DNA of 32,000 bases from Nevskia ramosa DSM 11499 (GCF_000420645.1 NZ_ATVI01000005.1:448357-480356); one strand, 5' to 3'; positions 1 through 18,405 are shown, counted from the first letter of the stretch. Program-made: numbers and translations. Notes: generated by a model not told the origin, from the letters alone.

Positions 1-893
1 CTGTCGAAGTCCTCGTTGATTCGAAGTTCGGTTGCCATCCGGGCAGACACCCGGTCATAGGCGGTCTGCCGCAGACTGCTGTCACGCCATTGCGCCAGAA
101 ACATCGTGGCCGCCGCCGTCATACGGGGCGGCAGCTGCATCGATTTGAAGCGATCCGGCAGGTCAGTCTGCAAAGCTGCACCGAGGTCGGATACGAACAG
201 CTGCAGCAGCAGGTTCAACAGGGATGGCGTGTCGGACCTGAATCCGAAGGTCTTGGCAGCCAGTGCCCAGAGCGGTGCTTCCAGATCCAGCTTGACGATC
301 GCCTGCCAGGCCTTTGCCTCGTTGACCGATTCTGCAGGATCCAGATCGCTCACCGATGCGAACAGGGTCGAAAACAGACTGAAGGTGTCGGCTTGGTCGG
401 CGCGCACCGCGACTGCCAGCATCTTCAGATCAAGTTCGGCTTCCAGGTCATCCTGCGTGACCCAGCGTTGCAGGCGTTCAAGCCGTGCCTTGCTGCCAAG
501 GAACCTCGCACGCAGCTTCAGGTGCTCGCTCATCTGCTGATGTCGCAGGCCGAGATCCTGCACCAACATTGCGCTCGCGTCGGCGGAGAACGGCGCGGCA
601 TAGCGGCGAATGTCCAGCAGCCAGTCACGCGTCGGCTCCGGGGCCTGCTCGTCTTCGTAGATTACGAAGGCCTGACCGGGTTCGATCAGCTCCAGCTGTC
701 GTTTCAAGGCTAGTGCCGGCACCTGCGAGCGGCGCAGCAAGGTCAAGTCTTCAAGTTGCAGCTCATCGACCAGTTCGGTGAATTGCGCTTCGGGATCGGC
801 CCACCAGATCACGCGGTGTTGCTTCGCGCGCAGTGCCAGCAGGCTTTCGCGAATCCGGCTTGCGTGCGGATTGGTTGGGGCTTCGATACTCAT
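1..893 (-). CDS. pglZ: BREX PglZ (alkaline-phosphatase superfamily), N-terminal ~297 codons; gene continues beyond the left edge
   Basis: Absent from the ORF track because it is open at the window edge. My minus-strand translation from ATG 893-891 has no stop down to base 3: MSIEAPTNPHASRIRESLLALRAKQHRVIWWADPEAQFTELVDELQLEDLTLL...TRDWLLDIRRYAAPFSAD... The W-x-D-P-E-x-x-F and DWLLDIR pattern matches my recollection of PglZ N-termini. It occupies the pglZ slot after pglX. Its ATG overlaps the upstream TGA (ATGA). Confidence 0.75.
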   Translation of the reverse strand, partial: MSIEAPTNPHASRIRESLLALRAKQHRVIWWADPEAQFTELVDELQLEDLTLLRRSQVPALALKRQLELIEPGQAFVIYEDEQAPEPTRDWLLDIRRYAAPFSADASAMLVQDLGLRHQQMSEHLKLRARFLGSKARLERLQRWVTQDDLEAELDLKMLAVAVRADQADTFSLFSTLFASVSDLDPAESVNEAKAWQAIVKLDLEAPLWALAAKTFGFRSDTPSLLNLLLQLFVSDLGAALQTDLPDRFKSMQLPPRMTAAATMFLAQWRDSSLRQTAYDRVSARMATELRINEDFD

Positions 894-1813
894 AAGCGTC
901 CGTAAGTGTCCAGAACAGCTTCCAGTCTTTCCCGCGCGGCGAGGCGCTGGGTCGTTTTCATCGTTTGCAGATTGCGCAGCTTCCACTGCACGGCCGGAAG
1001 TTCAGCAATGCGCGGGTGGGGGAAGAGCGCCCAGTCCGGCTCGCCGGCTTTCAGTGACAGCAGGAACGCCTTGTCGCGCTCCGTCATTAATTTCTGCAGC
1101 TGGTTCAGCAAACGCTCGCGTGCTGCTTCCAGCTGGTCGAGCGTCACCGGTAACACGGTCATGCCGGCGAACTGCTTTGCGTAGCTGTCCGCCAGCGGCT
1201 TCCAGCGCGGTGCCAGCAGTTCATTGATCGGCCGGCCGTGGCTGACCAGGTAGGTCAGGAAGCCTTCAAACACTGCGCGATCGAGTTCGTCGGCATCCAG
1301 CAGCAGCATCACGTCGAACCAGTCACGCGGATGCTGACGATCTAGCGCAGCGCATAGCTTGCCGCCGTAAAGATCCGGCAGTGAAAGCACCGGCACGCTG
1401 GCGAAGCCGAACTCGGTTTGCGCACGGCGCGCCAGATCGCGGACAGACGGCTCATGCAAGGTGCCGCGCAGCACCGGCGAGATCTCGACCTTGATCTGCA
1501 CGTTGCCACGGCCGACGACGATGCGGAGGGCATCGCTGCGATTCGTGTCGAGGCGTACCCGGCAGCCGGGTAGCCTTCGCTCGCATTCAGCAGCGATACG
1601 GTGCAGCGCCGCCCGCGCGTTCGGCAGTGCCTGATCCCGTGGCTCAAGCGGAAGGTAGGCTAGATCGATATCCACCGACAGCCTTGGCATATCGCGCACG
1701 AACAGGTTGATTGCCGTGCCGCCTTTCAGCCCGAAGCAGGCCTCCGCGCCGGTGAACGGCAGCACATCGATCAGCAATCGCACCTGTTCGACGTAGTACT
1801 CAGTCGCGGCCAT
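890..1813 (-). CDS. abiEii: AbiEii/AbiGii-family nucleotidyltransferase toxin (type IV TA), pair 1
   Basis: ORF track gives 890..1909. I prefer the internal ATG at 1813-1811 (MAATEYYVEQ...), which overlaps the abiEi stop by 14 nt. Motif FGLKGGTAINLF...LSVDIDLAY is the GG-T/DxD signature of DUF1814/AbiEii proteins. An AbiEi gene lies directly upstream. Confidence 0.8.
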   Translation of the reverse strand: MAATEYYVEQVRLLIDVLPFTGAEACFGLKGGTAINLFVRDMPRLSVDIDLAYLPLEPRDQALPNARAALHRIAAECERRLPGCRVRLDTNRSDALRIVVGRGNVQIKVEISPVLRGTLHEPSVRDLARRAQTEFGFASVPVLSLPDLYGGKLCAALDRQHPRDWFDVMLLLDADELDRAVFEGFLTYLVSHGRPINELLAPRWKPLADSYAKQFAGMTVLPVTLDQLEAARERLLNQLQKLMTERDKAFLLSLKAGEPDWALFPHPRIAELPAVQWKLRNLQTMKTTQRLAARERLEAVLDTYGRL

Positions 1814-2570
1814 CGACAAACCCTTTCGGTACGCTGATCTGATGGATGCGGTGAATGGCGCTGCCCGGCCAGAGGTGCCGCTTGCCGCTGCCACGATCGA
1901 CCGAAGCAAGGTCGATCCTCGACACCCAGGGATGCCGATGATGCTCGCCCAGCAGCAATACCAGCCGGGTCACGCGGACCTGAGCGCAGGCCTGCAATAG
2001 CGCTTGCATCAGGCTCGGGCGCAAGCCCATCAAGCCCTGCATCGCATGGTCCAGTGCTTCGAAGCCCGGCTCGTCGTGCACCGCATGGGCCAGTTCGAAC
2101 ACGGCGCGCTCAGCAGCGGCGATGGTGATCGACAACTCGCCGATCACATGCTTTTTGAACGAGGCATCGAGGCCGTCCAGCGTGCTGAACAGGGCCGACT
2201 TCTGCACCGACACCGGACGGGTCCAGTTTGCCTTCGCGAACCAGGTAGGCACGCGGGTCTTCGGTCTGGCGAACAGGTGGACCGGTGCTGCGCCCATTGC
2301 GATGTTCTGGCCATAGCCCAGCAGATCCAGTGCAGTCTGCCCGGCGATCCATATCGGAACGCCATCGTGCTGCAAGCCATGCACGCCACCGGGCCAGTCC
2401 ACCGATTCGCCTGCACGCGCATAGGCTCCCGTGCCCACCGGCACCAGCCAGCCACTGCGCAGGTAATGCGCGGTGAGGTTCCGGTCAATGCCCTGCGTCC
2501 GCAGCCACGCTGCCGTCACTACGGCATTCCGGGGCAGGCGCTGCAGCACAAGGTTTAATTTGGAACTCAT
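1800..2570 (-). CDS. abiEi: AbiEi-family antitoxin / transcriptional regulator (type IV TA), pair 1
   Basis: 256 aa. The N-terminal winged-HTH stretch AVVTAAWLRTQGIDRNLTAHYLRSGWLVPVGTGAYAR is typical of the AbiEi_4 domain. It overlaps the downstream AbiEii gene. Confidence 0.75.
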   Translation of the reverse strand: MSSKLNLVLQRLPRNAVVTAAWLRTQGIDRNLTAHYLRSGWLVPVGTGAYARAGESVDWPGGVHGLQHDGVPIWIAGQTALDLLGYGQNIAMGAAPVHLFARPKTRVPTWFAKANWTRPVSVQKSALFSTLDGLDASFKKHVIGELSITIAAAERAVFELAHAVHDEPGFEALDHAMQGLMGLRPSLMQALLQACAQVRVTRLVLLLGEHHRHPWVSRIDLASVDRGSGKRHLWPGSAIHRIHQISVPKGFVDGRD

Positions 2571-2645: not shown

Positions 2646-3647
2646 CTAGGCGGCTTCCAGCTTCGCAATCAGCGACGGAATGTCCCGCTGCCAGCCGCTA
2701 CGCTCATCCGCGTTGCGCCGATGCGTGGCGACCCAGGACAGCGCCTGACCGACGTCGTACAAGTTGACCACGTGGCGCACGGCACCTGGAACCGGTGCCA
2801 GCATCCCGGCGCGTTTCTTCGACGGAATAGCTTTCTCGAATGAATCCGCGAACTCGGCGTCATGCCCGGTGCGGCAAATGTGCAGCGTGCGGAAGGCTGC
2901 CAGCTTGCCCCAGGTATCGGCAACAGCCGTGTCCGCCCAGCGCGACAGGTGCTGCTGCTTGACCGCCGTCGTCGACCAGCGATGCAGCTGCTCGCGGTCT
3001 GCTGCCACGGTATTCAGCGCTTCTGGAACCAGCTGCGACAGCATCGAAATATCCAGCGAGGCGTCGTGAATCGCCCGCAGTTGCCTGAGCGACTTGTTGA
3101 TCACCAGGCCGTTCGAACACACCAACCGGTACCAGCCGAGAAACAGTTCGAGCGATGCGCCGCCGTCGACGGCATTGAAGCATTCGAAGCGCAGTCGCAG
3201 GCGGTGTTGGTCCGGCGGCACGTAATCCTTGCCTTCCGGCAGGAACATCCGGAAGTTCATCCATTCGCCGAGTGTCGTCAGGCCCAGCTGGCACTCAAGT
3301 CGATTGACGTCGAAACCGCAGCTCGCGAGCGCATTCACACAGCGCTCGGCGACTTCCTGATGCTGCGCCAGCGTGTAGGTGTTCGACACGATGCCAACCG
3401 GCATCCGTTGCTCGAATGGCGTCATCGGCAGCCGATATACCGCGCGGTAATACGGGTTGGCCGGCGCGCCGCCGTCACTGCGGAACTCGGCTAGCTCGAA
3501 CCGGGGGATATGTTTGCGGACTTGTGGCCAGTAGCCGCTGACATAGGTCACTTCGCGCGAGTGCCAGTTCGCGCTTTCGTCGGTCAGCCGAACGCCGTCT
3601 TCAGGCGGCGGGGCCGGGTTGGGCAAAAAAAGGTGACCATCATTCAT
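2646..3647 (-). CDS. DUF932-family protein (YfjQ-like), embedded in the BREX operon
   Basis: 333 aa ORF. VGIVSNTYTLAQHQEV and FECFNAVDGGASLELFLGWYRLVCSNGLV resemble the N-x-DG-S...R-x-VC-x-NG core I recall from DUF932 proteins such as E. coli YfjQ (LLNSHDGSSSY...FRFVCQNGCV). The ATG at 3647-3645 overlaps the pglX TGA at 3642-3640 (ATGAATGA). Confidence 0.7.
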   Translation of the reverse strand: MNDGHLFLPNPAPPPEDGVRLTDESANWHSREVTYVSGYWPQVRKHIPRFELAEFRSDGGAPANPYYRAVYRLPMTPFEQRMPVGIVSNTYTLAQHQEVAERCVNALASCGFDVNRLECQLGLTTLGEWMNFRMFLPEGKDYVPPDQHRLRLRFECFNAVDGGASLELFLGWYRLVCSNGLVINKSLRQLRAIHDASLDISMLSQLVPEALNTVAADREQLHRWSTTAVKQQHLSRWADTAVADTWGKLAAFRTLHICRTGHDAEFADSFEKAIPSKKRAGMLAPVPGAVRHVVNLYDVGQALSWVATHRRNADERSGWQRDIPSLIAKLEAA

Positions 3648-6600
3648 CGTTGTCGCCGCCAGTCACAGCCTTCACTTCCGCCAGCAGGTCGCCGAACTTG
3701 CCGTAATTGACCTTCACGCCATCGTCGAGATCTAGGGTGATGCGCTGGTCGGCGGCGTGGCGGAGTTTTTCGTCGAATCGACGGAGTTCTTCGAGTTGCT
3801 TGCGCAGGCTGTCCTGCTGCTTGCGCAGGCGGGTGGTGGTGGCGCTGCTGGTGCTGGCGGCGATGTCCTGGTCGAGCTGGTCGATGCGGGCTTGCAGGCG
3901 GCTTTGCAGCGGCACCACGTAGTCCATGCGCATGCGCGACAGGGTGCCGGCGTTGTAGCGGTGCAGGTAGACCAGGCACTGGAAGGCCTTTTCCTTGCCG
4001 CTGCTGAACAGCCAGTAGATCGGCCGCTTCTTGTAGGTCTGCAGGTGGTCCTTGAAGAAGCGGTCGCATAGATAGCGGCGCAGCGTGTCGCGGCTGGCCT
4101 CGCCCGTCTTCGGCGACAGGTTTTCGGCCAGGAAGCGCAGGTTCTCTTCTAGGTGCGTGGCATCCCAGGCCACCGAAATGAACTCGACCAGACGCTTGCA
4201 GGCATCGTCCTCGAACCATTCGGTATCGGTCAGCGGCAGGATGCCATCGGCATCGGCCGGGAAGCGGGTGTAGCGGCTGGGGTCGAAGCCTTCGTTGCCA
4301 CTGTGCGCGTAGATCAGTCCCGGCGCATCGAGGCTGTAGCGGCCCATCATGCAGCCGATGGCGTAGGACACCAGCTCCTGCATCGTGTCTTCGCGGAAGC
4401 GGGTCCACTGCTCTTCCTCGGTCAGCTTGCCGCCGTAGCGATAGGCTGGGTTCACCGTTAGCGTGATCTGCTCGATCGGGACTTCTGATGTCAGCTCGTC
4501 CTGCAGGCCGTAGGCGTCTATGAAGACGCGGTTGTTCTTTTCTTCGAGGCGCCGCATCTGGGCGATGGTGGCGCGGTTCTGAGTAATCCAGGCTGTGCAG
4601 CATGATTCGAGCGTTGACTTGGCTGTAGCGACGGCAACCAAGATCGGTAGAGATTGGAAGTCCCAAGAGCGCTCGTAAGCGTTCCAGTCGTTCATTGCGA
4701 TATCAATGCACGGCCTGACCACTTCAGTCGTTCTGCGCGCTACATCAACATTAATAGGCAGCTTGCCTAAAGGACCTTGCGAGTAATGAACATCTGGGCT
4801 AAGAAATCGCAGGAAGTAATCGAGGATCGGCGAGCAACCGAGTGCTAAAACGCTATAAAGATCGGAAATATTGCTCGCAAAGCACATCGGTCCTGTATGG
4901 CTGAACACGAAGCCCGGCGGAGAGAATCTTATAGAAAAACTTCCAATGCTGACGCTAGACCAAGTGACTCCCTGCTGAAAATATTTCTCTTTGTTAATTA
5001 CACGTCCATTTGATTTTACTCGTGCACCAGGGGTGCTATCAATAAATCTACAAATAGTTTCGCCATCGTTCTCATAGTTGATGACATGCTGATTGTTCCC
5101 GAACCACTTACGGAAATTTCCGCCCTTGTTTAGGGCAAACCACTTGCCCGATCGACGGGTTTCGTACGACACACAGGAAGGATGTACAAATGAGGCAACA
5201 GAGGGCTCATGCCATTGTCTTAAGAAAATTTCATCCTTTGTCGTGGCAAGCCCCTGCCGAGGCCTAGCAAAATCGTAGAGACTTGGAAATTCAGAGAAGG
5301 CTCTAATCGTCGAAGCACCGGCCCAATACGCTATTGGATTTCCGGGAATCTTTGAGAATTCAGCATTAGAGATGCTGAACCTAGTGTTTATGCGAAAACG
5401 GCGTTGTAGTTCTTCATTGCTCGCGACGCTGCCTGGCTTGTCGAATAGGCGTAAGAATCGACCACAAAATTGATGCGGTGCCCCCCGAAGCAATACATAG
5501 GAACAACTGCCAAAATCTGAGCCCCATACTCCTCGGCCATTATGTACAAGTGTCGAAATCGGGGCATCGCTTGATATGGTGTTCCGCAACTCTTCGAAGG
5601 AGGATAGGAACATCCAATTGGGAATTGTAATCATCCCGACACGACCGTTCTTCCGTGCAAAGATGACGTTTCTCTGGGCGAATGCACCATAGAGATCCGA
5701 TTTTCCGGCTGGGTAAGTACGATGTACGAAGTCCTTAAGTGGTTCGTCGTAATACTTTCCGCCCATATACGGCGGATTCGCCACAACGGAGTCATACCGT
5801 GCTGCCAGCATCTCTGCCTGTCGCGTCAGAACAGCCAACTGCGCCAGCGCCTCGAGCACGAACAGATCCTGCCCATCCGTCTCGCTCAAGCGCCGCAAAG
5901 CCGCCAGCTTGGCTGCCAGCGCTTCCGGCACGTGGATCAACGAGCCAAACGTCGTCGCATGCTCGAACAGCCCCTTCAGCGCCGTGAGGTCTCCCGAGGT
6001 CAGGCCGTAGTCCGCCAGCTTCACGCCCTGCACCAGCCGCTCGGCGTCAAAGCTTGCGCTGTCCTGCAGCGCCATCACGTTCAGCTGCACGCCTCGCTCG
6101 AACAGCCGCCGGTCGTCGGCGCGGGCCTTCATCATCAACGCGAAGCCGGTGAGCTGGGCGGCGCGGTCGTCGATGTCCAGCCCATACAGGTTCTTTTCCA
6201 GTATCAGCTTCGGGATGTCGCGCAGCACATAGCCGCGTTCCAGATAGATCGCTTTGAACAGTTCGTAGGCCTCGACCAGGATGTGGCCGGAGCCGCAAGC
6301 TGGGTCGATCAGGGTCAAGGCTTCCGGGTCTAGGCTGGCTGGCGTGATCGCCGCCAGTTGCGCCCTGACCGTTTCGGTCTGCTCGGCCGGCTCAATGTAG
6401 TAGGCCATCTGGGCCTTGAGGCCTGAATCCGGATAGGTGGCCAGCCACTGCGCGCCCAGCGAGTTCTGGACCATGTACTTGACGATCCAGTTCGGCGTGA
6501 ACAGCTGGGTGGCGGCCGGAATGTCTTCCGACTTCACGACCTTGCCGATCACTTGGTCCTTCTTTTCCGAGATGTAGAACTGGTACAGCCAGCCGATGAT

Positions 6601-7215
6601 CTCGACGTCCTGCCAGCTGGCTTCGTCGATGGCGGTGACCAGGCTGCGGATCAACGAATCGGTGCGCAGCAGGCCGTCCGGCAGCAGCAGTTCGGTGGCG
6701 TCATCAATGGCTTCGAACAGGAAGGGCATTGCGGTGTGCAGCGCGTGGCATTGGGCGAGCAGCACGGCGCGGTACAGGTCTTCATCGCGATTGCCGGCGG
6801 CCTTCCATTCCAGCGCCTGCTGGCGATCCAGCCCCGGCAGCTCGATGCGGGCCAGGTGTTCGAGGATTTCCGGCTGGCTGCTGCCATCCGGATGGCTCAG
6901 CACGCGGTAGCCGTGGTCGAGATAGCCGTGCAGCTCCATGTAGCGGATCGCGACCAGCCGGTTGAACCAGGTGTAGGCCAGTGCTTCGATGACGGACGCA
7001 TAGCTCTGCTGCTGGATGCGGGCGGCGAGCTTGCGGCGCTGCTCGGCGATCCGCGCCGGATGCGGCTGGCCGTTGATCAGCAGCACGTCGCCCTGCTGCT
7101 GGACGGTGGCCGGGTGCTCCGGGTTCAGGCCGAGCATTTCGGCGCGGCGGCCAACGGCGGCGATGAACGCCTTGCGGGCCAGCGGGGCGTAGGTTTTGAG
7201 GGGGGCGGTGTTCAT
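3640..7215 (-). CDS. pglX: BREX N6-adenine DNA methyltransferase PglX
   Basis: The ORF track frame 3640..7239 begins at a TTG. The first ATG at 7215-7213 gives MNTAPLKTYAPLARKAF... and overlaps the upstream TGA (ATGA). It has an AdoMet motif IDPACGSGHIL and catalytic motif IV VANPPYMGG (coded at 5764-5778). The ~1190 aa size and position after brxC also fit. Confidence 0.9.
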   Translation of the reverse strand: MNTAPLKTYAPLARKAFIAAVGRRAEMLGLNPEHPATVQQQGDVLLINGQPHPARIAEQRRKLAARIQQQSYASVIEALAYTWFNRLVAIRYMELHGYLDHGYRVLSHPDGSSQPEILEHLARIELPGLDRQQALEWKAAGNRDEDLYRAVLLAQCHALHTAMPFLFEAIDDATELLLPDGLLRTDSLIRSLVTAIDEASWQDVEIIGWLYQFYISEKKDQVIGKVVKSEDIPAATQLFTPNWIVKYMVQNSLGAQWLATYPDSGLKAQMAYYIEPAEQTETVRAQLAAITPASLDPEALTLIDPACGSGHILVEAYELFKAIYLERGYVLRDIPKLILEKNLYGLDIDDRAAQLTGFALMMKARADDRRLFERGVQLNVMALQDSASFDAERLVQGVKLADYGLTSGDLTALKGLFEHATTFGSLIHVPEALAAKLAALRRLSETDGQDLFVLEALAQLAVLTRQAEMLAARYDSVVANPPYMGGKYYDEPLKDFVHRTYPAGKSDLYGAFAQRNVIFARKNGRVGMITIPNWMFLSSFEELRNTISSDAPISTLVHNGRGVWGSDFGSCSYVLLRGAPHQFCGRFLRLFDKPGSVASNEELQRRFRINTRFSISNAEFSKIPGNPIAYWAGASTIRAFSEFPSLYDFARPRQGLATTKDEIFLRQWHEPSVASFVHPSCVSYETRRSGKWFALNKGGNFRKWFGNNQHVINYENDGETICRFIDSTPGARVKSNGRVINKEKYFQQGVTWSSVSIGSFSIRFSPPGFVFSHTGPMCFASNISDLYSVLALGCSPILDYFLRFLSPDVHYSQGPLGKLPINVDVARRTTEVVRPCIDIAMNDWNAYERSWDFQSLPILVAVATAKSTLESCCTAWITQNRATIAQMRRLEEKNNRVFIDAYGLQDELTSEVPIEQITLTVNPAYRYGGKLTEEEQWTRFREDTMQELVSYAIGCMMGRYSLDAPGLIYAHSGNEGFDPSRYTRFPADADGILPLTDTEWFEDDACKRLVEFISVAWDATHLEENLRFLAENLSPKTGEASRDTLRRYLCDRFFKDHLQTYKKRPIYWLFSSGKEKAFQCLVYLHRYNAGTLSRMRMDYVVPLQSRLQARIDQLDQDIAASTSSATTTRLRKQQDSLRKQLEELRRFDEKLRHAADQRITLDLDDGVKVNYGKFGDLLAEVKAVTGGDNDE

Positions 7216-8186
7216 GGTGGGTTGGCGGCGAGCAGGCAACGCGTCGCGATGTCCCGAAAGGTATTCAGGACATCGTCGAAGGCGGGGTTCTGGTTGGAAA
7301 ACAGCAAGGGGACAACGTGCTGGTCGTAGTCCGACCGATGCCGATCGGATTCGTCGAGGCTTTGCAGTGCGGCCTGAAGGGCCGATGCCGGGCTGGTCGC
7401 ATCGGTGAAACTGCGGCCATAGCTGGCGCGTTCTTCTTGGAGAACTTCGGCAAACAGGTTCACGGCCTCGTCCACGGCACCGGGGTGCCGGTGCGCGATG
7501 GCGTGAACATCATGCAGATGCCGGGCAAGCGTACGGTCCGATGGCTTGGCTGATGCTGGGTCGCGGATCTCGTCGGCCCGCCGCCGCAGCCACGCCATGA
7601 CCTTTTCGGCGAGGGTTTCGGCGATGTTCTGGCAGGGCACCTGGATCAGCGGGTTCGGGGTGTCGCCGACAAACTGGTCAACCATTCGCCAGATCGGCCT
7701 GGTTGTTGCTGGTCGCCGAAGGGTGGACAGGCGCAGTTCGATTTGCAGTTCAGGCCGCAGGGCGATGGCTTGCGCATATCGGGGGAGGTAGCGCCAGCGC
7801 ATGGTTATCTGCCGTGACTGATCGGCCTTGGTCAGCCATTGGTCGTCGGCCGGCTCGAATCCGGCGCTGGAAAGACGACCGGCGATGGCTTCGAAGACCG
7901 CCTTCATGGCTTTCGTCTGCTGGCCCCCGCTCAAATGCCCTTCCAGGTGGACCTTGATGTCGATGTCTTCCGACATGCGGGCGATGACGCCGTGACCCTT
8001 GGACAGGCTGGTGCCGCCGCAGAAGGTCAGGCTGGCGCCTGCGTTGACCGGCCAAGGGAACAGTTGGGCCAGGCTTTCGGTAACGTGGATGTCCTTTTCG
8101 AAAATCGCTGCCGTGAGACCGCCGACGTCACGTTCGGCCATCACGGCGTCGATCCGTTCAGCGTGTTCGGCTGAAATCGTTCTCAT
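7212..8186 (-). CDS. abiEii: AbiEii/AbiGii-family nucleotidyltransferase toxin (type IV TA), pair 2
   Basis: 324 aa. FCGGTSLSKGHGVIARMSEDIDIKV is the AbiEii-type GGT...DxD signature. It is preceded by an overlapping small wHTH gene. Its stop TGA at 7214-7212 overlaps the pglX ATG. Confidence 0.75.
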   Translation of the reverse strand: MRTISAEHAERIDAVMAERDVGGLTAAIFEKDIHVTESLAQLFPWPVNAGASLTFCGGTSLSKGHGVIARMSEDIDIKVHLEGHLSGGQQTKAMKAVFEAIAGRLSSAGFEPADDQWLTKADQSRQITMRWRYLPRYAQAIALRPELQIELRLSTLRRPATTRPIWRMVDQFVGDTPNPLIQVPCQNIAETLAEKVMAWLRRRADEIRDPASAKPSDRTLARHLHDVHAIAHRHPGAVDEAVNLFAEVLQEERASYGRSFTDATSPASALQAALQSLDESDRHRSDYDQHVVPLLFSNQNPAFDDVLNTFRDIATRCLLAANPP

Positions 8187-8574
8187 AGCGGACGGTCACG
8201 TTGCCGAAGCTGATCTTTCGGGAAATCCGCTTGCGCCCGGTGTTGAGCACGACTCCGGCCGGGATCTGGGTGGTGGCCTGGGCGTTGTAGCGCTGCGCCG
8301 CAAGTGACGGCCGGACCTGGACGCCGAGCTTTTTCAACGCCGCCGGTGCGAGTTCTTCCACCGGACGGACCGGGATGGGCTTGCCGGAGAGGGCGCTGGG
8401 CTTGGCGCGGGCATAGACACCCTTGCCAAGGCGAACGATGCGGCCATCCGCCTGCAAGGTCTTGATGGCGCGGCCGACCTGTTCATCGCTGCCGAGCTTG
8501 GCGAAGTCTGCGCGCACGAAGACATCGTCGCCGCGCAGGGCGATGGACCGCTTGAGGCGTTCGATGATGTTCAC
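8158..8574 (-). CDS. Short AbiEi-like winged-HTH protein, putative antitoxin of pair 2
   Basis: 138 aa with a GTG start (cac at 8572-8574). DDVFVRADFAKLGSDEQVGRAIKTLQADGRIVRLGKGVYAR resembles the AbiEi_4-type wHTH. It overlaps the AbiEii gene by 29 nt. It is much shorter than the pair-1 antitoxin (256 aa). Confidence 0.55.
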   Translation of the reverse strand: MNIIERLKRSIALRGDDVFVRADFAKLGSDEQVGRAIKTLQADGRIVRLGKGVYARAKPSALSGKPIPVRPVEELAPAALKKLGVQVRPSLAAQRYNAQATTQIPAGVVLNTGRKRISRKISFGNVTVRYENDFSRTR

Positions 8575-8659: not shown

Positions 8660-11600
8660 TCATCTTATCTCGATTCGCTCGCCGCGCTCCAGCGCGGCAT
8701 GCAGCGCGCTGCGCAGCGTGGCGAGGAAGGCTTCGACCTCGGCTTCGGTGCTCAGCGCGGAACCGCTCGCCAGCTTCGCCACTTGCAGGATGTGCGGGCG
8801 TTTCAGCTCCGGCACTGGCTTGATGACTGCCGGCTCTGGCTCGTTCACCGACCGGGCAGGGGTGGTCGTATTCGGCTTGTAGGTCACCGCTTGCGCGGCG
8901 GCCGCTGCGGCCTTTGCGGCGGCTTCGGCGGCGGCTTTTTTGCGGGCGTCGAGCCAGTTGTGGATCAGGTCGATGGCTTCGTCGGCATGGCGCTCGGCGT
9001 CGTCCTTCGACAGGTAGATGTGGGCAACGCTGGCTTGCTGCTCGATGGTGGCCTTCAGCGTTTGCAGCGGGCGCAGGCAGCGGTTGGCCAGATCGGCATC
9101 GGCTTCGGCGGCGGTCAGCTCCTGCTGCACGCGGTCGATCTTGCCGGCGATGTAGTCCGTGCCTTGCTTGCGGGCGGCGGCGAGCAGTTCGTCGTTGGTC
9201 TTGCGGACGGTGGTGATCAGACCATCAACCTCCCGCAGCAGACCGTAGGGCGACGGCGCGGCCAGGATTTCCTGCATCCGGCTCAGTGCAGCCTTGGCTT
9301 CGGGCACCTGTTCGAGCTTGCCGGCGTTCGGCTTGAACTCTTGCAGCGCGGACTTGAGCTTGTCCCAAGTAGGCTTCTGGCTTTCGAAGAAGTTTTTCAG
9401 CTCGCCGTAGCTGTCGGCAGCGGCGAGCAGTTCGTTTCGGTTGGCCAGGAACAGTTCGATGGCGGCAAAGCTGTTGGCCGCAGCCAGCTGTTTGCGGGCG
9501 GCGATCAGGGTGTCGGTGATCGCCTTCGCACCGGGGTAGATGCCGCTGCTGACAAGCAGCTGCCAGCGGTCCAGCGACTGCTTCCAGGCTTCGAAGCGTT
9601 CGCGCAGAAATTCGTACAGCTTGTCTTCGCCATCCGGCCCGATGGTCTGGAACACGTCCTTCGCGAGCTGACGGGCCTTCTGCAGATCTGCCGAGGCCAC
9701 GGCCTTTCGTTTCTGTACGCGAAGGGTGCGCCAGCGGCTTTGGGTGACGATTTCTTCCCAGATGGCATTTGCTGCTAGCGGCTGGCTGTCCGCGCCTTTC
9801 ATCAGCGTCACTTCTCCGCGCATCACCAGTCGCACAACCAGCAAGACGGTTTCCCATTCCGGCCACCCGTAAGGGCGGCGGGCATAAATGCCTTCCGCGA
9901 GGTCGTGCAGCACTGGCGTGCGGGACAGGGCCTCCTGCGTCTCAAGGTGCTGCGCCACTTCCTTCATGGCACGAGGATTGGTTTCGGACGTCTGTTCGAG
10001 CCCGAGTCCAGTGGTTGGCGGCGCGCTCAGCAGCAGGCGGATTTCCTTCTGCGGATCGGCATTCAGGTGTTCGATGTAGCCGAGCTTGGAAAAGGTGTTG
10101 GCGACCAGATAGCCAAGCGCTTCGTCGAACATCGACGCCGCGTTGCTGGATTTCAGGCTCGGCTTCTGGCCCGCGACATACACATCTGCTTCCTTCAGCA
10201 GCTTGTCGAGGATGACTACGAGGCGCTTGCGTCGCTCGCGGTTCTCGTCGGCGCGGTGGCTCAGGATGGTCATCGTCGACGACGGTTGGGTGCCATCGCT
10301 CTTGCGGCTGATGTAACGATCAGTCTGCAGGTAAAGGCGCAGTTCGCGGGCCAGCGCGTCATCGTCCCGGAGGCGGATCAACACGCTGCCGTCGTTCGTA
10401 CTGCTATCGAGGATGCAGCGCGGCGGCGTGAGCTGCGCGCGGTCATCCGATAGCGGCGAAATGACCATCACGTTGAGATCGCCTTCGGTGCGGTTGCCAT
10501 GCGGATGCTGGTCGCAGGACAGGTTCAAACCGAAGTCCTTCTTGTTAGCCACATAACGGAACTTGCGCTTGTTGCCGAGCACTTCGTCGAAGATCAGCCG
10601 GGCGACTTCACGGGCTTCATCGGCGCTACTGAGGTCGACGTTTTTGATTTCCTTGCTGACGTCGCGCTCTTCGTTGGTCAGGAAGAAAAAGTCATCGCCA
10701 TTGCGGCCGACCAGATTCTGGTTTTCCAGCCGCTGTAGGCTAGCTTCCAGTTCTTGGCGCAGCGCGAGGCGATCTGCGTCTAGCTGGTCAATGAACAGGG
10801 TGATCAGGTTGTCGACCGATCCTTTCAGCTCATCGACGTAGCGGATCAAGAACAGCGTTTTCAGTACCAGTACGTCGAAGGATTTGAGGCTGGCGTTATC
10901 AGCGGCATGGTCGATGGTCGACTTCACGACACCTTCGAGAAAGCTCTCGATCGAAGGGTAGAAGCGGTATAGCGGAATCAACAAGCCGACCGACTGATCA
11001 GCAACGGCGACCGCTGCCGATTGGAAGGCATCGAGAAGCGAGCGTTCGCCACGAGCAAGGTGCAGGCCGGTGGCCCCTGCCTTGCGGATGCTTTCGAAAA
11101 TGCGCTGGACTAGCTGGAACTGGTAGGGAGCGAACGGGTAGACGGCGGCGAAGTTGTCTTCATCGGTGAAGCCCTTGAAGTTGCGGCCTGTGCTTCCGAA
11201 GCTGAGCTGGTTGCGAAGGATGTCCGCCTTGTCGCGGTAAATGCCGCGCAGCGTGGCGAGTACGTCATCCGGCTTGGCAAGCAGACGGGCTTGGATCACT
11301 TCATCGACGTTGGCGCTGGACAGCGACAGCCGCGTCTTGAAGCGGCCCTGAATCTTCGAGAAATCGTTGGCACTGCCGCCCCGCATGTCCTTGAGCACGT
11401 CGTCGATGTTTTCCTGCGAGGTGACCACTACCCAAGCGCGGCCGCCACAGACGGTGCCGAGATTTTCGGTGATGGTCTGCAGGCTGAGCATCAACTCGCT
11501 GTTCTTGCCGATGAATTGGCCGATCTCGTCGACCAGGAAGATCAGGCGGGCCTGCTTGCCCTTCTGATCGAGGTATTCCCGAACCCAGCCGGCAAAGTTT

Positions 11601-12331
11601 TCGACGGTGAGAGAGAAGCCGGTTTCGAAGCGCTGCATCCAGGCTTCTGCATCCGGGACGTCTTTCTTTAACGTGACCGATAAGGCTTTGCCGAGGGCAT
11701 CGAGGTGGAAGTTGTAGGCGTCGCGGCTGTCTTCCCAGGATTCGCCTGCTTCCAGTCGGAAGGCGTTGCGGAAGTTATCGTAGTCCTTCCTGCCGGCCAG
11801 ATAACGCTCCATGTGGGCGATGTGGGCGTGGTCGCCGCAGTAGCCCTGCATCTCGTTGAACACCTTCAGGAACACCCGAAGGATGGTGTCTCGGCCATCG
11901 GCGGCATCGGCCTTGCTGTCGATGTTGAAAAGCAGAACCTCGGCCCCGCCGCCGACGGCGCGCTTCAAGTCGCCGAACAGCATGGCGTCCTTGATCTTGT
12001 CTTCGAAGAAGCTGATGGCCTTGCGTTCGCCGCCCGCTGCGCTGACCGCTGCGCGGTTGCTAAGCAGGTAGGAAAGGATCTTCAAAAAGTGCGATTTGCC
12101 TGAGCCGAAGAAGCCGGAAATCCACACGCCCACCTTGCCGGAGGCCTCTTCCGGACGCTGCAGCGCCGACAGATAGGTTTCGAAAAAGCGACGCAGGTGC
12201 TGGTCCAGTTCACGTGTGATGACGTATTCGTCCAGTTCCTGCCAGACGGCGGCGGCATCGTTCTGATCTGCCTTGATGACACCGTTGATTGACCGGCGGA
12301 TAGGGCGGCTGAAAAGGGCTTCGATATTCAT
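8660..12331 (-). CDS. brxC: BREX ATPase BrxC (DUF499-type, PglY-like)
   Basis: 1223 aa. N-terminal Walker A context VWISGFFGSGKSHFLKILSYLL. Size and position after brxB fit. An Ala/Lys-rich linker lies near the C-terminus. Confidence 0.9.
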   Translation of the reverse strand: MNIEALFSRPIRRSINGVIKADQNDAAAVWQELDEYVITRELDQHLRRFFETYLSALQRPEEASGKVGVWISGFFGSGKSHFLKILSYLLSNRAAVSAAGGERKAISFFEDKIKDAMLFGDLKRAVGGGAEVLLFNIDSKADAADGRDTILRVFLKVFNEMQGYCGDHAHIAHMERYLAGRKDYDNFRNAFRLEAGESWEDSRDAYNFHLDALGKALSVTLKKDVPDAEAWMQRFETGFSLTVENFAGWVREYLDQKGKQARLIFLVDEIGQFIGKNSELMLSLQTITENLGTVCGGRAWVVVTSQENIDDVLKDMRGGSANDFSKIQGRFKTRLSLSSANVDEVIQARLLAKPDDVLATLRGIYRDKADILRNQLSFGSTGRNFKGFTDEDNFAAVYPFAPYQFQLVQRIFESIRKAGATGLHLARGERSLLDAFQSAAVAVADQSVGLLIPLYRFYPSIESFLEGVVKSTIDHAADNASLKSFDVLVLKTLFLIRYVDELKGSVDNLITLFIDQLDADRLALRQELEASLQRLENQNLVGRNGDDFFFLTNEERDVSKEIKNVDLSSADEAREVARLIFDEVLGNKRKFRYVANKKDFGLNLSCDQHPHGNRTEGDLNVMVISPLSDDRAQLTPPRCILDSSTNDGSVLIRLRDDDALARELRLYLQTDRYISRKSDGTQPSSTMTILSHRADENRERRKRLVVILDKLLKEADVYVAGQKPSLKSSNAASMFDEALGYLVANTFSKLGYIEHLNADPQKEIRLLLSAPPTTGLGLEQTSETNPRAMKEVAQHLETQEALSRTPVLHDLAEGIYARRPYGWPEWETVLLVVRLVMRGEVTLMKGADSQPLAANAIWEEIVTQSRWRTLRVQKRKAVASADLQKARQLAKDVFQTIGPDGEDKLYEFLRERFEAWKQSLDRWQLLVSSGIYPGAKAITDTLIAARKQLAAANSFAAIELFLANRNELLAAADSYGELKNFFESQKPTWDKLKSALQEFKPNAGKLEQVPEAKAALSRMQEILAAPSPYGLLREVDGLITTVRKTNDELLAAARKQGTDYIAGKIDRVQQELTAAEADADLANRCLRPLQTLKATIEQQASVAHIYLSKDDAERHADEAIDLIHNWLDARKKAAAEAAAKAAAAAAQAVTYKPNTTTPARSVNEPEPAVIKPVPELKRPHILQVAKLASGSALSTEAEVEAFLATLRSALHAALERGERIEIR

Positions 12332-12342
12332 GAGAATTTTCT

Positions 12343-12921
12343 TTATCCGACGAGGCGAAAGGCGCGGTAGTACGGGCTTTCGCCGAGTTCACCGAACAGG
12401 CGTAATGACTGGCCGTCGTAACGGCCGGGGTAGAACAGGACCAGGGGCGTCGCACCCATCAGCGGCTGGAGACTGTTCAGCAAGGTATGGGTGCGGATCA
12501 GCGGGTAGGCGCTGCCAACACCGGTCAGTAACAGCACATCGCAGCTGCTGGGCGGCTGGCGCTTCATCAACTCGGCAGCGACTTTGTCGGCACTCAGCGG
12601 TGCAAGCAGTGCTTTCAGCAGGGCGTCGTCGCCCTTCTTGCGCTGCATGTCGAGCGACTTTTCGTACAGGCCGCGCGCTTCGACCATGCCGATCAGCAGA
12701 TCCAGCAGATTGATACGCGCGACTCGTAGATCCGGCTTGCGCTTCGGGATCGCGTCAACCAGGAAGTCGACATGGGCTCGAACCTGTTCTTCTGCCTCTG
12801 GCGGGTAGTCGAAGGCGTAAAACGGGACTTCGTTGCCGAGGCCGCGCCCGGACAAGAATTCCGCCGATGTGATCCGATCCAAAATAGCGTTCAGTCGGAC
12901 TTCGAGCGTGGTCACGGACAT
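12343..12921 (-). CDS. brxB: BREX protein BrxB (DUF1788)
   Basis: The ORF track start at 12933 is a GTG. The first ATG at 12921 gives MSVTTLEVRLNAILDRI... VPFYAFDYPPEAEEQVR and the C-terminal SPYYRAFRLVG fit my recollection of DUF1788. It overlaps the brxA stop and lies 11 nt upstream of brxC. Confidence 0.8.
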   Translation of the reverse strand: MSVTTLEVRLNAILDRITSAEFLSGRGLGNEVPFYAFDYPPEAEEQVRAHVDFLVDAIPKRKPDLRVARINLLDLLIGMVEARGLYEKSLDMQRKKGDDALLKALLAPLSADKVAAELMKRQPPSSCDVLLLTGVGSAYPLIRTHTLLNSLQPLMGATPLVLFYPGRYDGQSLRLFGELGESPYYRAFRLVG

Positions 12922-13514
12922 ATCAGCAGGCACTCCAAAATTTGACGCTCGCCTGCGGCTTCGAGCAATTGACGGACAGCAGGTTCGATCGGGCGACGAC
13001 GCAGCGCGAGGTGTTTGGTATCGAGCACGAAGCCGGCTTCCTGCAGCATGCGCATGCCGTTCTGGCGGAGCTTTATGCGGGTCGACGCGTTGTAAGGCTC
13101 GATTTCCGGGTGCGCGCGCAGCTGCTGGTCGATGTAGTCATCCCAGGCGGTTGGCGCGAGCGCGGTTGAGAAACGACGGAACTCGTCGCGCAGAACATCA
13201 CGAAGAAATTGACCGAACAGTGGCGAGAACTTGACCGTGGCGGCAAGGGCGACGTCGGTGGCTTCGGCATGGCTGCCGTTGCGTGCCAGCTGCCACAAGG
13301 TCGTCGGCACGACCTGCAGCCGTGAGCGGGCAAGGGTGGCGTAGGTCACCGCTGTCAGGCGGGTTTTCTTCTGTAGGACGTTGTCGACTTCGATCGCCTG
13401 CTTCCAGTCCGCAGGCGAGATCCGATCCAGCAACAGCCCTGCCACGATCCGCGTTTCTGGAACGATCAGGGAGGCCTTGGTGAAGTTCGCCTTCATCGTG
13501 CGCGGAACGGCCAT
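12912..13514 (-). CDS. brxA: BREX protein BrxA (DUF1819)
   Basis: 200 aa and the first gene of the operon. The helical protein contains DNVLQKKTRLTAVTYATLARSRL...FLRDVLRDEF, which resembles BrxA. The call rests mainly on position, size and synteny. Confidence 0.7.
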   Translation of the reverse strand: MAVPRTMKANFTKASLIVPETRIVAGLLLDRISPADWKQAIEVDNVLQKKTRLTAVTYATLARSRLQVVPTTLWQLARNGSHAEATDVALAATVKFSPLFGQFLRDVLRDEFRRFSTALAPTAWDDYIDQQLRAHPEIEPYNASTRIKLRQNGMRMLQEAGFVLDTKHLALRRRPIEPAVRQLLEAAGERQILECLLICP

Positions 13515-14048
13515 TGCGGCGCCGCGTCCATGCCAGCGGCGGGCAATGCAAGGCAGCCCGCTGGCCTGCGGGGCAAGAAGAACTGAGCCATTACTCCCCG
13601 AATAAATTTTGTGGCCGATTAGCGGCTTTTCGTGAGTTTAGCCGTGCTTGTCGGCGCAGTGTTCCTGCTTGCCGGCTGTACGTGCTGATGACGGTTCTGA
13701 AGCGTGATCAAGCTCTCACGACGAGTCTGTAGCCTTCAGGAACGGAGCGGAAGTTAGGCGCGGGCATTGGGCGGCTGTTGACTCGGGTAGGCCAAAGTTC
13801 CGATTGCCTTGAAACAACTGTCGCAGTTTAGTGGTCTGCACCCCGAGCCAGGTACGGAAGGTTGGCTCTACATACCAACGACGGTACGCCTACCTCGGGG
13901 TACAGATGAAAAAGGAGACACCGGGTGGAAGTAAGGAGATTTTTGACGCCGCTGTATCCGCGACGCTGAATCTGACCTTCCCACAACCCAACGGGCCACC
14001 GTCGGGGCGGCGCCTCCCCCGCAGCATCTGGCCGGTGACGACAGAAGG

Positions 14049-14375
14049 TCAATCAGCCATCACTGATGCCATCAACGCTCGATAAGCAGCGCTTCCGGAT
14101 CGTCGACGCTCGGCTTTCGTCAGAAGCGCGCTCAGCAGACGTAGTGCATCGTCAGCAGCCTTCAAGCGCACGTCTTGGTCCGTAGGCTCCGACGCGACAT
14201 GCACCGCCCACAGACGGCCGAACGCCAGGTTGACCGACGCGCGCCAGCGCTCCGGGACGGCCCCTGCATTGTTGGCGTGGCGGCGGTGCTGCAATTGCTG
14301 CTCAGGTTGTGTGGCCTCGCCCATAAAGCACTGAAGCCGGTGGTTTCTCGATTGCATGAAGGATTTGCGACTCAT
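14049..14375 (-). CDS. Hypothetical small protein
   Basis: The ORF track 14049..14384 starts at a GTG; the first ATG is at 14375. I recognise no motif. The C-terminal half looks helical. Confidence 0.3.
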   Translation of the reverse strand: MSRKSFMQSRNHRLQCFMGEATQPEQQLQHRRHANNAGAVPERWRASVNLAFGRLWAVHVASEPTDQDVRLKAADDALRLLSALLTKAERRRSGSAAYRALMASVMAD

Positions 14376-14512
14376 CGTTCTCACCCGAATGGTTGCCGCT
14401 GGCGCTGACTCAGAAAAGCGCAGCCGACGGCCGCGCGATGCTGGCGCTCGCGAATTGGGGTTCTGGTGTGAAGCAATGACGCTACCCGGAACGGCCTGTT
14501 AGATGCCGGTCT

Positions 14513-14839
14513 TCAGCCGTCGATGACGAGCAAGTCGTGATTGAAGGTCTTGTGTATCACTCGAATATCCGCTCCGACCAGCGCCTTTATTTCCAGAGCG
14601 ATAAGCCGGCCCTCGGCATCCAGATAAACCGGGTCGAACTTTTCGGGCTCGTCAAGCCGAAGCCAGAAATGACGCTCCCAGTCGTCAATACGCTGTTCCA
14701 GCGCTTCCGGCCAGCCAAGCTCGTCCAGCCATATAGCAGCAAATGATTGATCCCAAATGCATGCGCCATAGTCAGCCATCAGGGTGATTTCGGTGATGGG
14801 GTCTGCATCCATGGCAGGAGAGGCTTGGGGCTCGATCAT
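14513..14839 (-). CDS. Hypothetical acidic Trp-rich protein (108 aa)
   Basis: The ORF reads like real coding sequence (ACIWDQSFAAIWLDELGWPEALEQRIDDWERHFWLRLDEPEKFDP). GC is lower than in neighbouring genes. No clear Shine-Dalgarno sequence and no family recognised. Confidence 0.45.
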   Translation of the reverse strand: MIEPQASPAMDADPITEITLMADYGACIWDQSFAAIWLDELGWPEALEQRIDDWERHFWLRLDEPEKFDPVYLDAEGRLIALEIKALVGADIRVIHKTFNHDLLVIDG

Positions 14840-15212
14840 CGAAATAGCTTACCCGGCATGCCGGTTCAGCAAGGCAGGGTCTTCATCGACGCTGCTCGAA
14901 GAAGTAAGAGACTTTGGGCTAACCACCGCCAGCGAACGGTATTGGTCCGACCCTCGTTCAGGTCGACGATCGGTAGCGACGAGAAATAGGCCGCGATAAA
15001 AAGGTCTAGGAAGGACGCCATACCTTCATCGTATTCCGGCCCTCTCAGGAACCGGCCCCCCAGTCGGCGAATTTTCTGGTGCTCTAGACGTTTTGAGTAT
15101 ATCGGCCGTCGAGTGCGGGTAGGTAGTGGCAAGGTTTCGCTTTAGACATCTTGTAAGTCGCCAATTTGATGCTGTCTAAACCATCGGTAGATCAGGGATT
15201 TGCGCTGATACC

Positions 15213-15494: not shown

Positions 15495-15778
15495 GCGGTG
15501 CCCTCGGACAATTTCAGCAGCAGACGGGCCGCAACTTCCGCGTTCGCGCGAGTCATGCCGCCGTCGTATTCCATGATGGCGGCACGCTCTTCGAATGCTT
15601 CGGATTGCGCTTCGCGCCGAAGCACTTCCGCCACCTCGTTCCTGCACGCCACCAACGCCGGCAGCATGCTTGTCAGCGCCGCTTTGGGTCCTTGGTAGCG
15701 CACACGCCCGGCTTCATGCCAGAGCCTGACGCCAACGGCCTGGGCTTCGCCGATCACTCCTTCCGCGTTCAAAGCCAA
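15491..15778 (-). CDS. Small hypothetical protein following the DUF3987 gene
   Basis: 95 aa with a TTG start that overlaps the DUF3987 stop by 10 nt. The ERAAIMEYDGGMTRANAE motif recurs, to my recollection, in small proteins of primase modules on mobile elements. Confidence 0.45.
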   Translation of the reverse strand: MALNAEGVIGEAQAVGVRLWHEAGRVRYQGPKAALTSMLPALVACRNEVAEVLRREAQSEAFEERAAIMEYDGGMTRANAEVAARLLLKLSEGTA

Positions 15779-17385: not shown

Positions 17386-18404
17386 GACCGCACCTCGCTT
17401 ACCGCGTTCAGCAGCACTGCTGCCGTCGCGTCGCGTCCATAGCTCGCCTGATAGTCGTTCCAATCCGTGCCAGTATCGCCAGCGCCGAATGCCGGTGCGA
17501 TGACGGTGCCGCCAATGGCTCGCGCCGCTGCCCGGCCTTTGGTCAGCCCCGGATTGCCCGGTGTGCCGTGATCGTTGTCGGCACCGATGACGATGCGAGC
17601 GCTCGGGTACTTCGCCCGAAGCGCTAGTGCGACGGGTTCAAGGTTGCCGGCGTCGAATGCGGTGACTGTCGGCCAGCCTGTCACCTCATGAATCGTTGCC
17701 GCCGTGGCGAAGCCTTCGGCGATGGCCAGCATGCTGCCAGCGGCCAGCGGAGGGCTTCCGAGGGCATGAAAGCATCCGGTTTTCGCGGTATCCGTCAGGA
17801 ATCGCTTGCCGCCGTCGGCCGCGATGAATTGCAGGCCATGCAGGGTGTCGGACGTATCGACGACTGGCACCACGATGCGGGCCGCATGCTGGCGCGAGCC
17901 GTGCGGCTTGATACCTTTGCGGATCAGGTAAAAATGCGCGGCATCGACTTCTTTAGCAGCTTGCCAGAGCGTTGCGGCACGCTTCCGGCAGACCTGCCGC
18001 GCCTTGGCGACTTCGGCGCAACGCATGGCCCTTGCGGCTTCCACCCGCGCTCGGTGATCAGCCTGTTCGGTCCTTGTCAGCATTCGCCCGATACTGGCGC
18101 GCCAAGTGCCGCCGATGCCAGATTTCCAGTGTCCGAAAGCCGCAGCAGGAACGCCATCCACATGCAGGATGTACCAGCCGTTGACGGTGCCGCGCCGATC
18201 GCCGTCGACATGAAAGCGATGCAGCCTGCCGTCGGCCTGAATCGCGGCATCGGTATCCAGTCCCGCCGATCGCAGCGCGGCCCGGAACGCGTCAACGACC
18301 TCGCCAAAGGTGAAGACCTTAGCCGTATGATTCTGGTGTGTTTGGACATGCAATCCCGCCGCTTCCCGGTTCCAGCCGGGCGCGGCGTTTTTGTTGGCGT
18401 GCAT
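17382..18404 (-). CDS. Toprim-domain DNA primase (P4 alpha-like N-terminal module)
   Basis: The ORF track gives 17382..18476. I prefer the ATG at 18404 (MHANKNAAPG...), 1 nt after the alpA stop. Toprim-like acidic motifs are present: LAIAEGFATAATI (Glu) and RIVIGADNDH (DxD). Confidence 0.7.
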   Translation of the reverse strand: MHANKNAAPGWNREAAGLHVQTHQNHTAKVFTFGEVVDAFRAALRSAGLDTDAAIQADGRLHRFHVDGDRRGTVNGWYILHVDGVPAAAFGHWKSGIGGTWRASIGRMLTRTEQADHRARVEAARAMRCAEVAKARQVCRKRAATLWQAAKEVDAAHFYLIRKGIKPHGSRQHAARIVVPVVDTSDTLHGLQFIAADGGKRFLTDTAKTGCFHALGSPPLAAGSMLAIAEGFATAATIHEVTGWPTVTAFDAGNLEPVALALRAKYPSARIVIGADNDHGTPGNPGLTKGRAAARAIGGTVIAPAFGAGDTGTDWNDYQASYGRDATAAVLLNAVSEVRS

Positions 18405-18405
18405 G

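Follow-up and report, generated by a model that had tools for sequence, protein, structure and literature searches.

A DUF932-subfamily gene as a recurrent, optional member of BREX, Hma and restriction-modification operons

In the 32,000-nucleotide stretch of the Nevskia ramosa DSM 11499 genome that was analysed (GCF_000420645.1 NZ_ATVI01000005.1:448357-480356, hereafter the window), a gene of the DUF932 family lies inside a type-1 bacteriophage exclusion (BREX) operon, directly behind the methyltransferase gene pglX. A survey of 139 related loci in genomes and metagenomes shows that the subfamily to which this gene belongs is a recurrent optional gene in operons that encode an N6-adenine methyltransferase together with an ATP-dependent partner, and that it normally follows the gene of the methylase or of the specificity subunit directly, the stop and start codons overlapping or abutting. 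The association of the subfamily with methylase-based defence operons is highly probable, whereas its role in these operons can so far be proposed with much less confidence.

A gene overlapping pglX, and its counterparts in other defence operons

The gene occupies positions 2646..3647 on the minus strand and encodes a protein of 333 amino acids. Its ATG start codon (3647-3645) lies five bases 5' of the TGA stop codon of pglX (3642-3640), the two genes overlapping by 8 nt (ATGAATGA, 3640..3647, minus strand); the junction reads '...gacaacgATGAATGAtggtcac...', and the sequence around the start is ...GACAACG-ATGAATGA-TGGTCAC... An earlier note, made from the sequence of the window alone, had described a 333-codon open reading frame (ORF) whose ATG overlaps the pglX stop and had recognised in it a DUF932 core with two motifs, VGIVSNTYTLAQHQEV and FNAVDGGASLELFLGWYRLVCSNGLV. 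The former is borne out by the ORF listing and by the sequence at the junction, and as to the latter, both motifs are present, letter for letter, in the translation, and Pfam recognises a single family, DUF932 (PF06067), at residues 84-254 (profile positions 2-169 of 227), with a score of 41.3 bits where the gathering threshold is 23 (E=2e-10). The start at ATG 3647 is supported by the conservation of the MNDG... N-terminus in the two closest homologues (88% and 68% identity). Among 5.8 billion proteins searched there were 339 matches, which are mostly full-length among the best 120 listed, and an exhaustive profile search returned 343 clusters (50% identity) at E<1e-30 and 2438 at E<1e-3; these 339 homologues and 343 clusters rule out a chance reading frame. 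The ORF is a genuine gene under strong constraint, and it can be inferred that it is co-transcribed and translationally coupled, and hence produced together with the methylase.

Related loci were collected by peptide-pattern scans of one genome per GTDB species (185,579 species representatives), which gave 59 loci, and of metagenomes of the Joint Genome Institute (JGI), which gave 179 loci, the best 80 of which were kept. Neighbouring genes were labelled by tblastn with the BREX proteins of the window and with reference proteins from the loci that had first been identified by Pfam or PADLOC. If direct adjacency is defined as a distance of at most 300 nt, the 59 genome loci have as direct neighbours BREX in 7 cases, Hma in 5, type I restriction-modification (R-M) in 4 and other R-M-like systems in 5, and when the range is widened to 5 kb, an R-M-like system is present at 36 of the 59. 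The 80 metagenome loci are directly adjacent to BREX (27), Hma (15), type I R-M (1) and other R-M-like systems (0), and where metagenome contigs extend for at least 1.5 kb on both sides, 26 of 30 carry an R-M-like system within 5 kb.

The copies adjacent to BREX genes make up 34 of the 139 loci (7 genome and 27 metagenome loci), and nearly all of them are ordered pglX-DUF932-pglZ. This order is found in L008, L010, L011, L016, L017 and L029, and also in the divergent BREX loci L013 and L015, in which BrxL was confirmed by Pfam. The genomes concerned are those of Nitrospira, Verrucomicrobiota, Acidobacteriota, Nitrosospira, Bryobacterales, Burkholderiales and Lysobacterales, to which the 27 metagenome contigs have to be added. 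The earlier note had argued that the gene is not a random passenger, and the homologues directly after pglX and before pglZ in these 7 genome and 27 metagenome loci, with codons mostly overlapping or near each other, speak for this view; the possibility that homologues never occur beside pglX elsewhere is clearly refuted by the 34 loci. BREX loci with the DUF932 gene retain all six core genes, brxA, brxB, brxC, pglX, pglZ and brxL, and the gene therefore adds to the system and replaces no part of it. Thus, although it lies within the canonical operon of type-1 BREX and is coupled to pglX, in the window as in the 34 other loci with this arrangement, it is not one of the six genes; it is optional and uncommon, and it occurs also outside BREX. 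That it stands outside the defined BREX gene sets had already been held by the earlier note and agrees with PADLOC-DB, in which no family matches the DUF932 protein, and with the 2026 survey of BREX and BR systems in Nucleic Acids Research (PMC12839542), whose text and available supplements make no mention of the DUF932 family. The number of BREX-linked copies recovered from the 185,579 species representatives, 7-9 in a pattern-limited scan, suggests that the gene is rare as well as optional in BREX.

In Hma operons the gene is found in an equivalent position, the order being Snf2/NOV_C helicase, DUF1156 methylase, DUF932 and DUF499 ATPase in L004, L006, L012, L014 and L021 and in about 15 metagenome contigs. 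L021 and L061 give full-length matches to HmaA, HmaB and HmaC in PADLOC, and the precomputed Pfam labels of contigs L061 and L062 independently show the same succession of SNF2/NOV_C helicase, DUF1156, DUF932 and DUF499. What PADLOC calls Hma, a system made up of the helicase HmaA, the methylase HmaB and the ATPase HmaC, corresponds to 'BR type 1' of the survey and is defined by three genes (PMC12839542). Compared with this definition, DUF932 is an undescribed fourth gene, placed between hmaB and hmaC in a subset of the loci.

Type I R-M operons contain the gene in several arrangements, namely hsdR-M-S-DUF932 (L027), hsdM-S-R-DUF932 (L001 and L066), hsdR-DUF932-hsdM-S (L035) and hsdS-DUF932 (L030), and it is also associated with pairs of an Snf2(HKD)-helicase and a type IIG/ISP methylase (L022, L031, L036, L041 and L046). 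A link that is particular to BREX and PglX, as the earlier note had it, does not hold up against these findings, since the same subfamily follows HmaB and occurs in type I and helicase/type IIG operons.

The coupling to the neighbouring genes is tight on both sides. The best DUF932 start is -17 to +15 nt away from the stop codon of the methylase gene in about 45 of the 55 BREX and Hma loci, and on the other side the following core gene as a rule overlaps the DUF932 gene or begins within a few tens of bases. When extra genes are present at the junction, the DUF932 gene keeps to pglX in some cases (the window, L013, L078 and L123) and to pglZ in others (L081, L085 and L112). The locus of the closest relative, L060 with 88% identity, has exactly the arrangement of the window, pglX-DUF932-AbiEi-AbiEii-pglZ, according to precomputed Pfam labels. 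Such a recurrent and position-conserved co-occurrence in distant taxa supports the view that the gene is a candidate accessory component of BREX and R-M systems.

About a third of the loci are stand-alone or have other neighbours, which speaks for an add-on and not for a core gene. A Pfam summary of 104 neighbours gave no recurrent partner for these remaining loci, and several of them hold other defence genes, for example PDC-M11A directly upstream in L002, type III R-M or ShosA. No relative of the subfamily was found among PLSDB plasmids by tblastn at E<=1e-10 or in a scan of IMG/VR viral contigs, and plasmids and phages are therefore not obvious carriers of it.

Some individual loci are worth describing on their own. 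A triad of a protein of about 490 amino acids, a protein of 132 amino acids and then DUF932 is encoded in L002 (1-2889) and L064 (8033-10969). The larger protein of L002 matches the PADLOC candidate PDC-M11A with E=7e-194 (it was the L002 copy, not that of L064, that was scanned), and the DUF932 copy of L002 is among the closest relatives of the window protein in the tree. The DUF932 gene may thus be an unlisted member of the PDC-M11A candidate system. In L031, a type ISP/IIG-like methylase-restriction protein of 1325 amino acids with a C-terminal S24 (LexA-like) peptidase domain is encoded at 11045-15022, after the Snf2 helicase and DUF932, the genes of which have a 4-nt overlap of start (DUF932) and stop (helicase). 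In L069 (1-5755), pglX and DUF932 are followed, after about 1.8 kb, by a second stretch that matches the N-terminus of PglX from residue 9 onward, which could be a duplicated or shuffled pglX arrangement 3' of DUF932. Frameshifted or truncated DUF932 copies, recognised as at least two tblastn pieces or as short remnants, are present in L023, L024, L037, L052, L056 and L059, three of the six being located in one Bryobacterales genome; the gene is therefore also lost or decaying.

Conserved site, predicted fold and history of the subfamily

DUF932 is a large family that occurs in phages, plasmids, integrative and conjugative elements (ICEs) and E. coli cryptic prophages. By its sequence, the window protein belongs to a distinct subfamily of about 320-340 amino acids, with identities of 45-50% between phyla, and except for the two close relatives (88% and 68%), aligned homologues are 42-50% identical to it. 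An alignment of 31 homologues from different phyla contains 52 invariant columns, which include E128-W129, E155-C156-x-N158, W172-x-R174-x-x-C177-x-N179-G180 and H194, and further His, Cys, Asp and Lys residues close by are nearly invariant. The earlier note had called the protein YfjQ-type, and this is correct for the core: BLASTP aligns it with E. coli YfjQ (NC_000913) with 30% identity (E 7e-8), and the motif N-x-x-DG-x-S...R-x-VC-x-NGLV...H, the positions of which are invariant in the subfamily, is common to both. The label does not extend beyond the core, as the alignment covers 81 amino acids, and the motif is therefore family-wide, while the remainder of the protein is specific to the subfamily. 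The name TIGR03299-type, which the note had brought up as well, is not sustained, since nothing matched at E<=0.01 in NCBIfam release 20, where that model is included; the resemblance to proteins annotated in this way is one of fold. In comparison with the DUF932/PF06067 proteins at large (YfjQ, YafZ and the TIGR03299-like proteins of phages and plasmids), the window protein shares the Pfam family, the predicted fold and the core motif, and with YfjQ also the location on a P4-type island, but its subfamily, of about 330 amino acids, is set apart by an additional beta region at the N-terminus and by an extended helical C-terminal half, and it is typically found inside methylase-based defence operons and not beside antirestriction or toxin-antitoxin genes.

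The AlphaFold2 model, based on an alignment of 121 sequences, has a predicted local distance difference test (pLDDT) score of 90.2 and a predicted template modelling (pTM) score of 0.86. In this model the N-terminal two-thirds are beta-rich and the C-terminal third is helical. A Foldseek search of the predicted viral structures in BFVD returned 37 proteins at E<=0.001 (template modelling (TM) scores 0.5-0.65, E down to 3e-11), the named ones among which mostly carry a DUF932, TIGR03299 or DUF945 annotation (in one case that of a putative alpha/beta hydrolase); many are unnamed or uncharacterised, and no function is recorded for any of the 37. In PHROGs there are just two weak matches, both to families without an assigned function. 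Membership in the DUF932 family is secure by Pfam, fold and motif, and the fold, as modelled, points to no function. The protein was also considered as a DNA mimic or DNA binder, and its isoelectric point of about 6-7 strongly backs neither. Among the 150 top representatives there is no fusion to a methylase; the longer ones are P0122, P0125 and proteins with N-terminal extensions that have no Pfam match. P0122 (895 amino acids) consists of two tandem DUF932 domains, the first of which is degenerate and lacks the C-x-N-G motif, and it has no similarity to PglX or HmaB; the tandem hints that the DUF932 family acts as dimers. P0125 (461 amino acids) has a Helicase_C domain N-terminal to DUF932, which may be a real fusion or an artefact of the gene call.

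The history of the gene is only loosely tied to that of the BREX core proteins. A neighbour-joining tree has one clade of mainly BREX-linked copies and another of mainly Hma-linked copies. The type I-linked copy of L009 and some stand-alone copies are nested within the BREX and Hma clades, and the window protein itself clusters with the type I-linked copy of L001 and two stand-alone copies, outside the main BREX clade. In a set of 18 BREX loci, pairwise distances between the DUF932 proteins are weakly correlated with the distances for PglX, BrxC and PglZ (Spearman coefficients of 0.26-0.34), compared with 0.77-0.98 for the BREX core proteins among themselves. In view of the mixed tree and the weak co-divergence, DUF932 behaves as a cassette that was inserted at this site of the operon on more than one occasion and is exchanged between systems.

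A proposed second layer of restriction and the alternatives

The explanation that we favour, with a probability of roughly one half, is that DUF932 is a system-agnostic auxiliary module of methylase-based defence and not a core subunit. Most likely it would support or guard restriction by methylase-based systems as a second layer, for instance through a response that sets in once the methylase or recognition complex is interfered with. Such an action could proceed via the family-wide polar site E155-C-x-N-S/A-x-D-G...R174-x-x-C-x-N-G...H194, which by its conservation resembles an enzymatic or ligand-binding centre and is presumably the functional centre of the protein. This explanation is favoured because BREX, BR and R-M loci recruit embedded backup modules, and two AbiE pairs are present here, because it accounts for the spread over four host systems that have one methylase class in common, and because it fits the cassette-like evolution and the stand-alone copies. 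PrrC is a comparable embedded module in type I R-M. Like the embedded modules of BREX and R-M loci (PARIS, GmrSD/BrxU, AbiE, Schlafen and OLD-family nucleases), DUF932 is optional, flanked by core genes, present in several host systems that have one class of methylase in common, and of semi-independent history; it differs from them in being a single protein of about 330 amino acids whose coupling is tighter, and whose position directly after the methylase is more fixed, than has been reported for such modules. That BREX and BR loci take in embedded backup effectors is documented in the recent survey (PMC12839542). The specific role as a second layer for restriction, taken by itself, is tentative and somewhat less likely than not.

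Several points weigh against this explanation. It is a proposal from genomic context. The loci come from pattern scans ranked by similarity to the query, and their proportions are thus not population frequencies; the neighbour labels are mostly tblastn assignments with a limited reference set, and the gene calls in the loci are crude. The model gave nothing in a Foldseek search of the PDB at E<=0.001 (best E 0.13, TM about 0.1), a sequence-profile search of PDB sequences found no solved relative, and Pfam, PADLOC and the PDB Foldseek search revealed no recognisable nuclease, ATPase, effector or toxin domain. Insertions are known to be frequent at the pglX|pglZ junction, and the position alone is weak evidence. 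Finally, the tight coupling at both junctions and the BREX- and Hma-specific clades would equally fit a true subunit.

Such a subunit, the main rival explanation and in line with the functional partner that the earlier note had suggested, would be a dedicated partner of the methylase, which binds PglX (or HmaB, or HsdM/S) stoichiometrically and tunes methylation against restriction, for instance in de novo methylation upon recent acquisition of the system, or in target recognition. That the gene immediately follows the methylase gene in most BREX and Hma loci, their codons overlapping, and hsdS in L027 and L030 would be well explained in this way, as would the set position between the methylase and the next core gene, the separate BREX and Hma clades and the attachment to pglX despite downstream insertions in the window, L013, L078 and L123. 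However, the methylases concerned are very different from each other (PglX, DUF1156-HmaB, HsdM and type IIG), the gene stays with pglZ where genes have been inserted upstream of it (L081, L085 and L112), co-divergence with PglX is weak, and the window copy is more closely related to one linked to type I R-M than to those of the BREX clade. It also fits poorly that stand-alone loci exist, that no methylase fusion is seen among the top representatives, and that the gene is outside the six-gene type-1 BREX set of the literature and is paired with BREX in just 7-9 recovered GTDB loci. A dedicated partner is thus rather unlikely, and because of the other hosts, the stand-alone loci and the weak co-divergence, a modulator dedicated to PglX is less likely than a system-agnostic add-on.

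It could also be that the gene serves the mobile element and not the operon, which would be a safe harbour for it: its product would act for the island, in establishment or anti-restriction, and the gene would be kept at the insertion-tolerant pglX|pglZ site. The DUF932 family at large is indeed phage-, plasmid- and island-borne (phage proteins in BFVD, YfjQ in CP4-57), the BREX operon of the window is located on a similar P4-type island with integrase, Toprim and DUF3987 genes, and the same junction holds AbiE genes here and other inserts elsewhere, in keeping with a cassette-like evolution. But neither the IMG/VR viral contigs nor the PLSDB plasmids yielded a member of the subfamily, and it occupies equivalent positions with conserved coupling in four kinds of methylase-based systems and at least eight phyla. 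Such a recurrence is hard to explain without selection for co-expression, which strains this reading and makes it improbable. That DUF932 is the first gene of a DUF932-AbiEi-AbiEii module which has been inserted into BREX as a unit is highly improbable, for although the window and L060 have these genes in an unbroken row from pglX to pglZ, the DUF932 gene directly abuts pglZ or hmaC in most loci, and AbiEi and AbiEii already form a complete two-gene system by PADLOC and Pfam models. A tblastn search of 145 loci with AbiEi and AbiEii of the window gave matches beside DUF932 in L060 alone, and the linkage to the AbiE module, seen in the window and L060, is not obligate.

If DUF932 is taken as an auxiliary module of methylase-based defence, one may go further and regard the subfamily as a portable plug-in enzyme or sensor that is recruited behind any N6-adenine-methylase defence gene (BREX, Hma/BR-1, type I, type IIG) and adds a layer, for example by detecting or neutralising anti-restriction factors or by controlling the balance of modification and restriction; this is conceivable, though somewhat doubtful. 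If it were true, the whole DUF932/TIGR03299 family, including yfjQ and yafZ of E. coli K-12, would act where incoming DNA meets restriction systems. In any case BREX and its relatives have an extra, conserved and optional gene, and DUF932 has its first reproducible functional context. That the gene takes one and the same place in the operons of BREX, Hma/BR-1 and classical restriction systems points to a shared element, which would be the adenine methylase/recognition module or its inhibitors. Since accessory genes are a productive route into the still-debated mechanism of BREX, the DUF932 gene offers a compact experimental handle, and PADLOC, DefenseFinder-type rules and the recent BREX classification currently do without it.

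What has been known before is DUF932 as an uncharacterised family and the canonical BREX locus, whereas no description of a link between this subfamily and BREX, Hma or R-M was found in PADLOC-DB, in the literature searched or in the 2026 survey. No function of DUF932 is reported in the literature searched, subscription journals and most supplementary tables being outside the search, and searches for yfjQ, yafZ, TIGR03299 and PF06067 in this literature gave nothing functional. A preprint on Variovorax describes mutations in an ICE-borne DUF932 gene that were selected after phage exposure.

The BREX operon and island of the window

The type-1 BREX operon of the window is encoded on the minus strand in the order brxA-brxB-brxC-[AbiE pair]-pglX-DUF932-[AbiE pair]-pglZ. 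The brxA gene (12912..13514; Pfam BrxA E=5e-37) is followed by brxB (12343..12933; Pfam BrxB E=1e-37) and brxC (8660..12331; Pfam BrxC 4th, helical and wHTH domains). Between brxC and pglX there are a gene for a DUF6088/AbiEi_4-like protein (8158..8574; Pfam DUF6088 E=8e-9, AbiEi_4 E=1e-4) and, as its partner, the gene of a second AbiEii-type toxin (7212..8186; Pfam AbiEii E=2e-35, PADLOC AbiEii E=3e-92). The pglX gene itself (3640..7239) has 1199 codons and encodes the BREX N6-adenine methyltransferase (Pfam Eco57I/N6_Mtase/MmeI_Mtase; PADLOC PglX 1464 bits). Its longest ORF opens with TTG, while model alignments start at residue 9 (MNTAPLK), and translation probably begins at the ATG near 7215.

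On the other side of the DUF932 gene, 75 nt 3' of it, an AbiEi_3-type antitoxin or regulator is encoded (1800..2570; Pfam AbiEi_3_N and AbiEi_3, PADLOC AbiEi E=2e-71), together with an AbiEii nucleotidyltransferase toxin (890..1909; Pfam AbiEii E=2e-39, PADLOC AbiEii E=2e-117), the stop codon of which overlaps the ATG of pglZ (ATGA). Of pglZ, the N-terminal part of about 297 codons is present (1..893, translation MSIEAPTNPH...), which is cut by the start of the window and is 33-37% identical to PglZ of related BREX loci by tblastn; brxL would be expected outside the window. A single six-gene BREX operon has thus taken up three insertions, two AbiE pairs (7212-8574 and 890-2570) and the DUF932 gene.

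Upstream of brxA, likewise on the minus strand, there are genes for a DUF3987 protein (15769-17463), a Toprim primase-like protein (17382-18476) and a P4-type tyrosine integrase (19120-20337), and the BREX operon is therefore carried by an integrative island. The island is of the same general kind as CP4-57 of E. coli, which holds intA, alpA, DUF3987, an antirestriction gene and the DUF932 gene yfjQ. A tRNA gene at the end of the island was not found in the window. Inside pglX, the G+C content falls to 0.52-0.56 at 4001-6000, compared with about 0.62-0.65 in the flanks, and this stretch could be a horizontally exchanged segment of the methylase, for example its target-recognition region.

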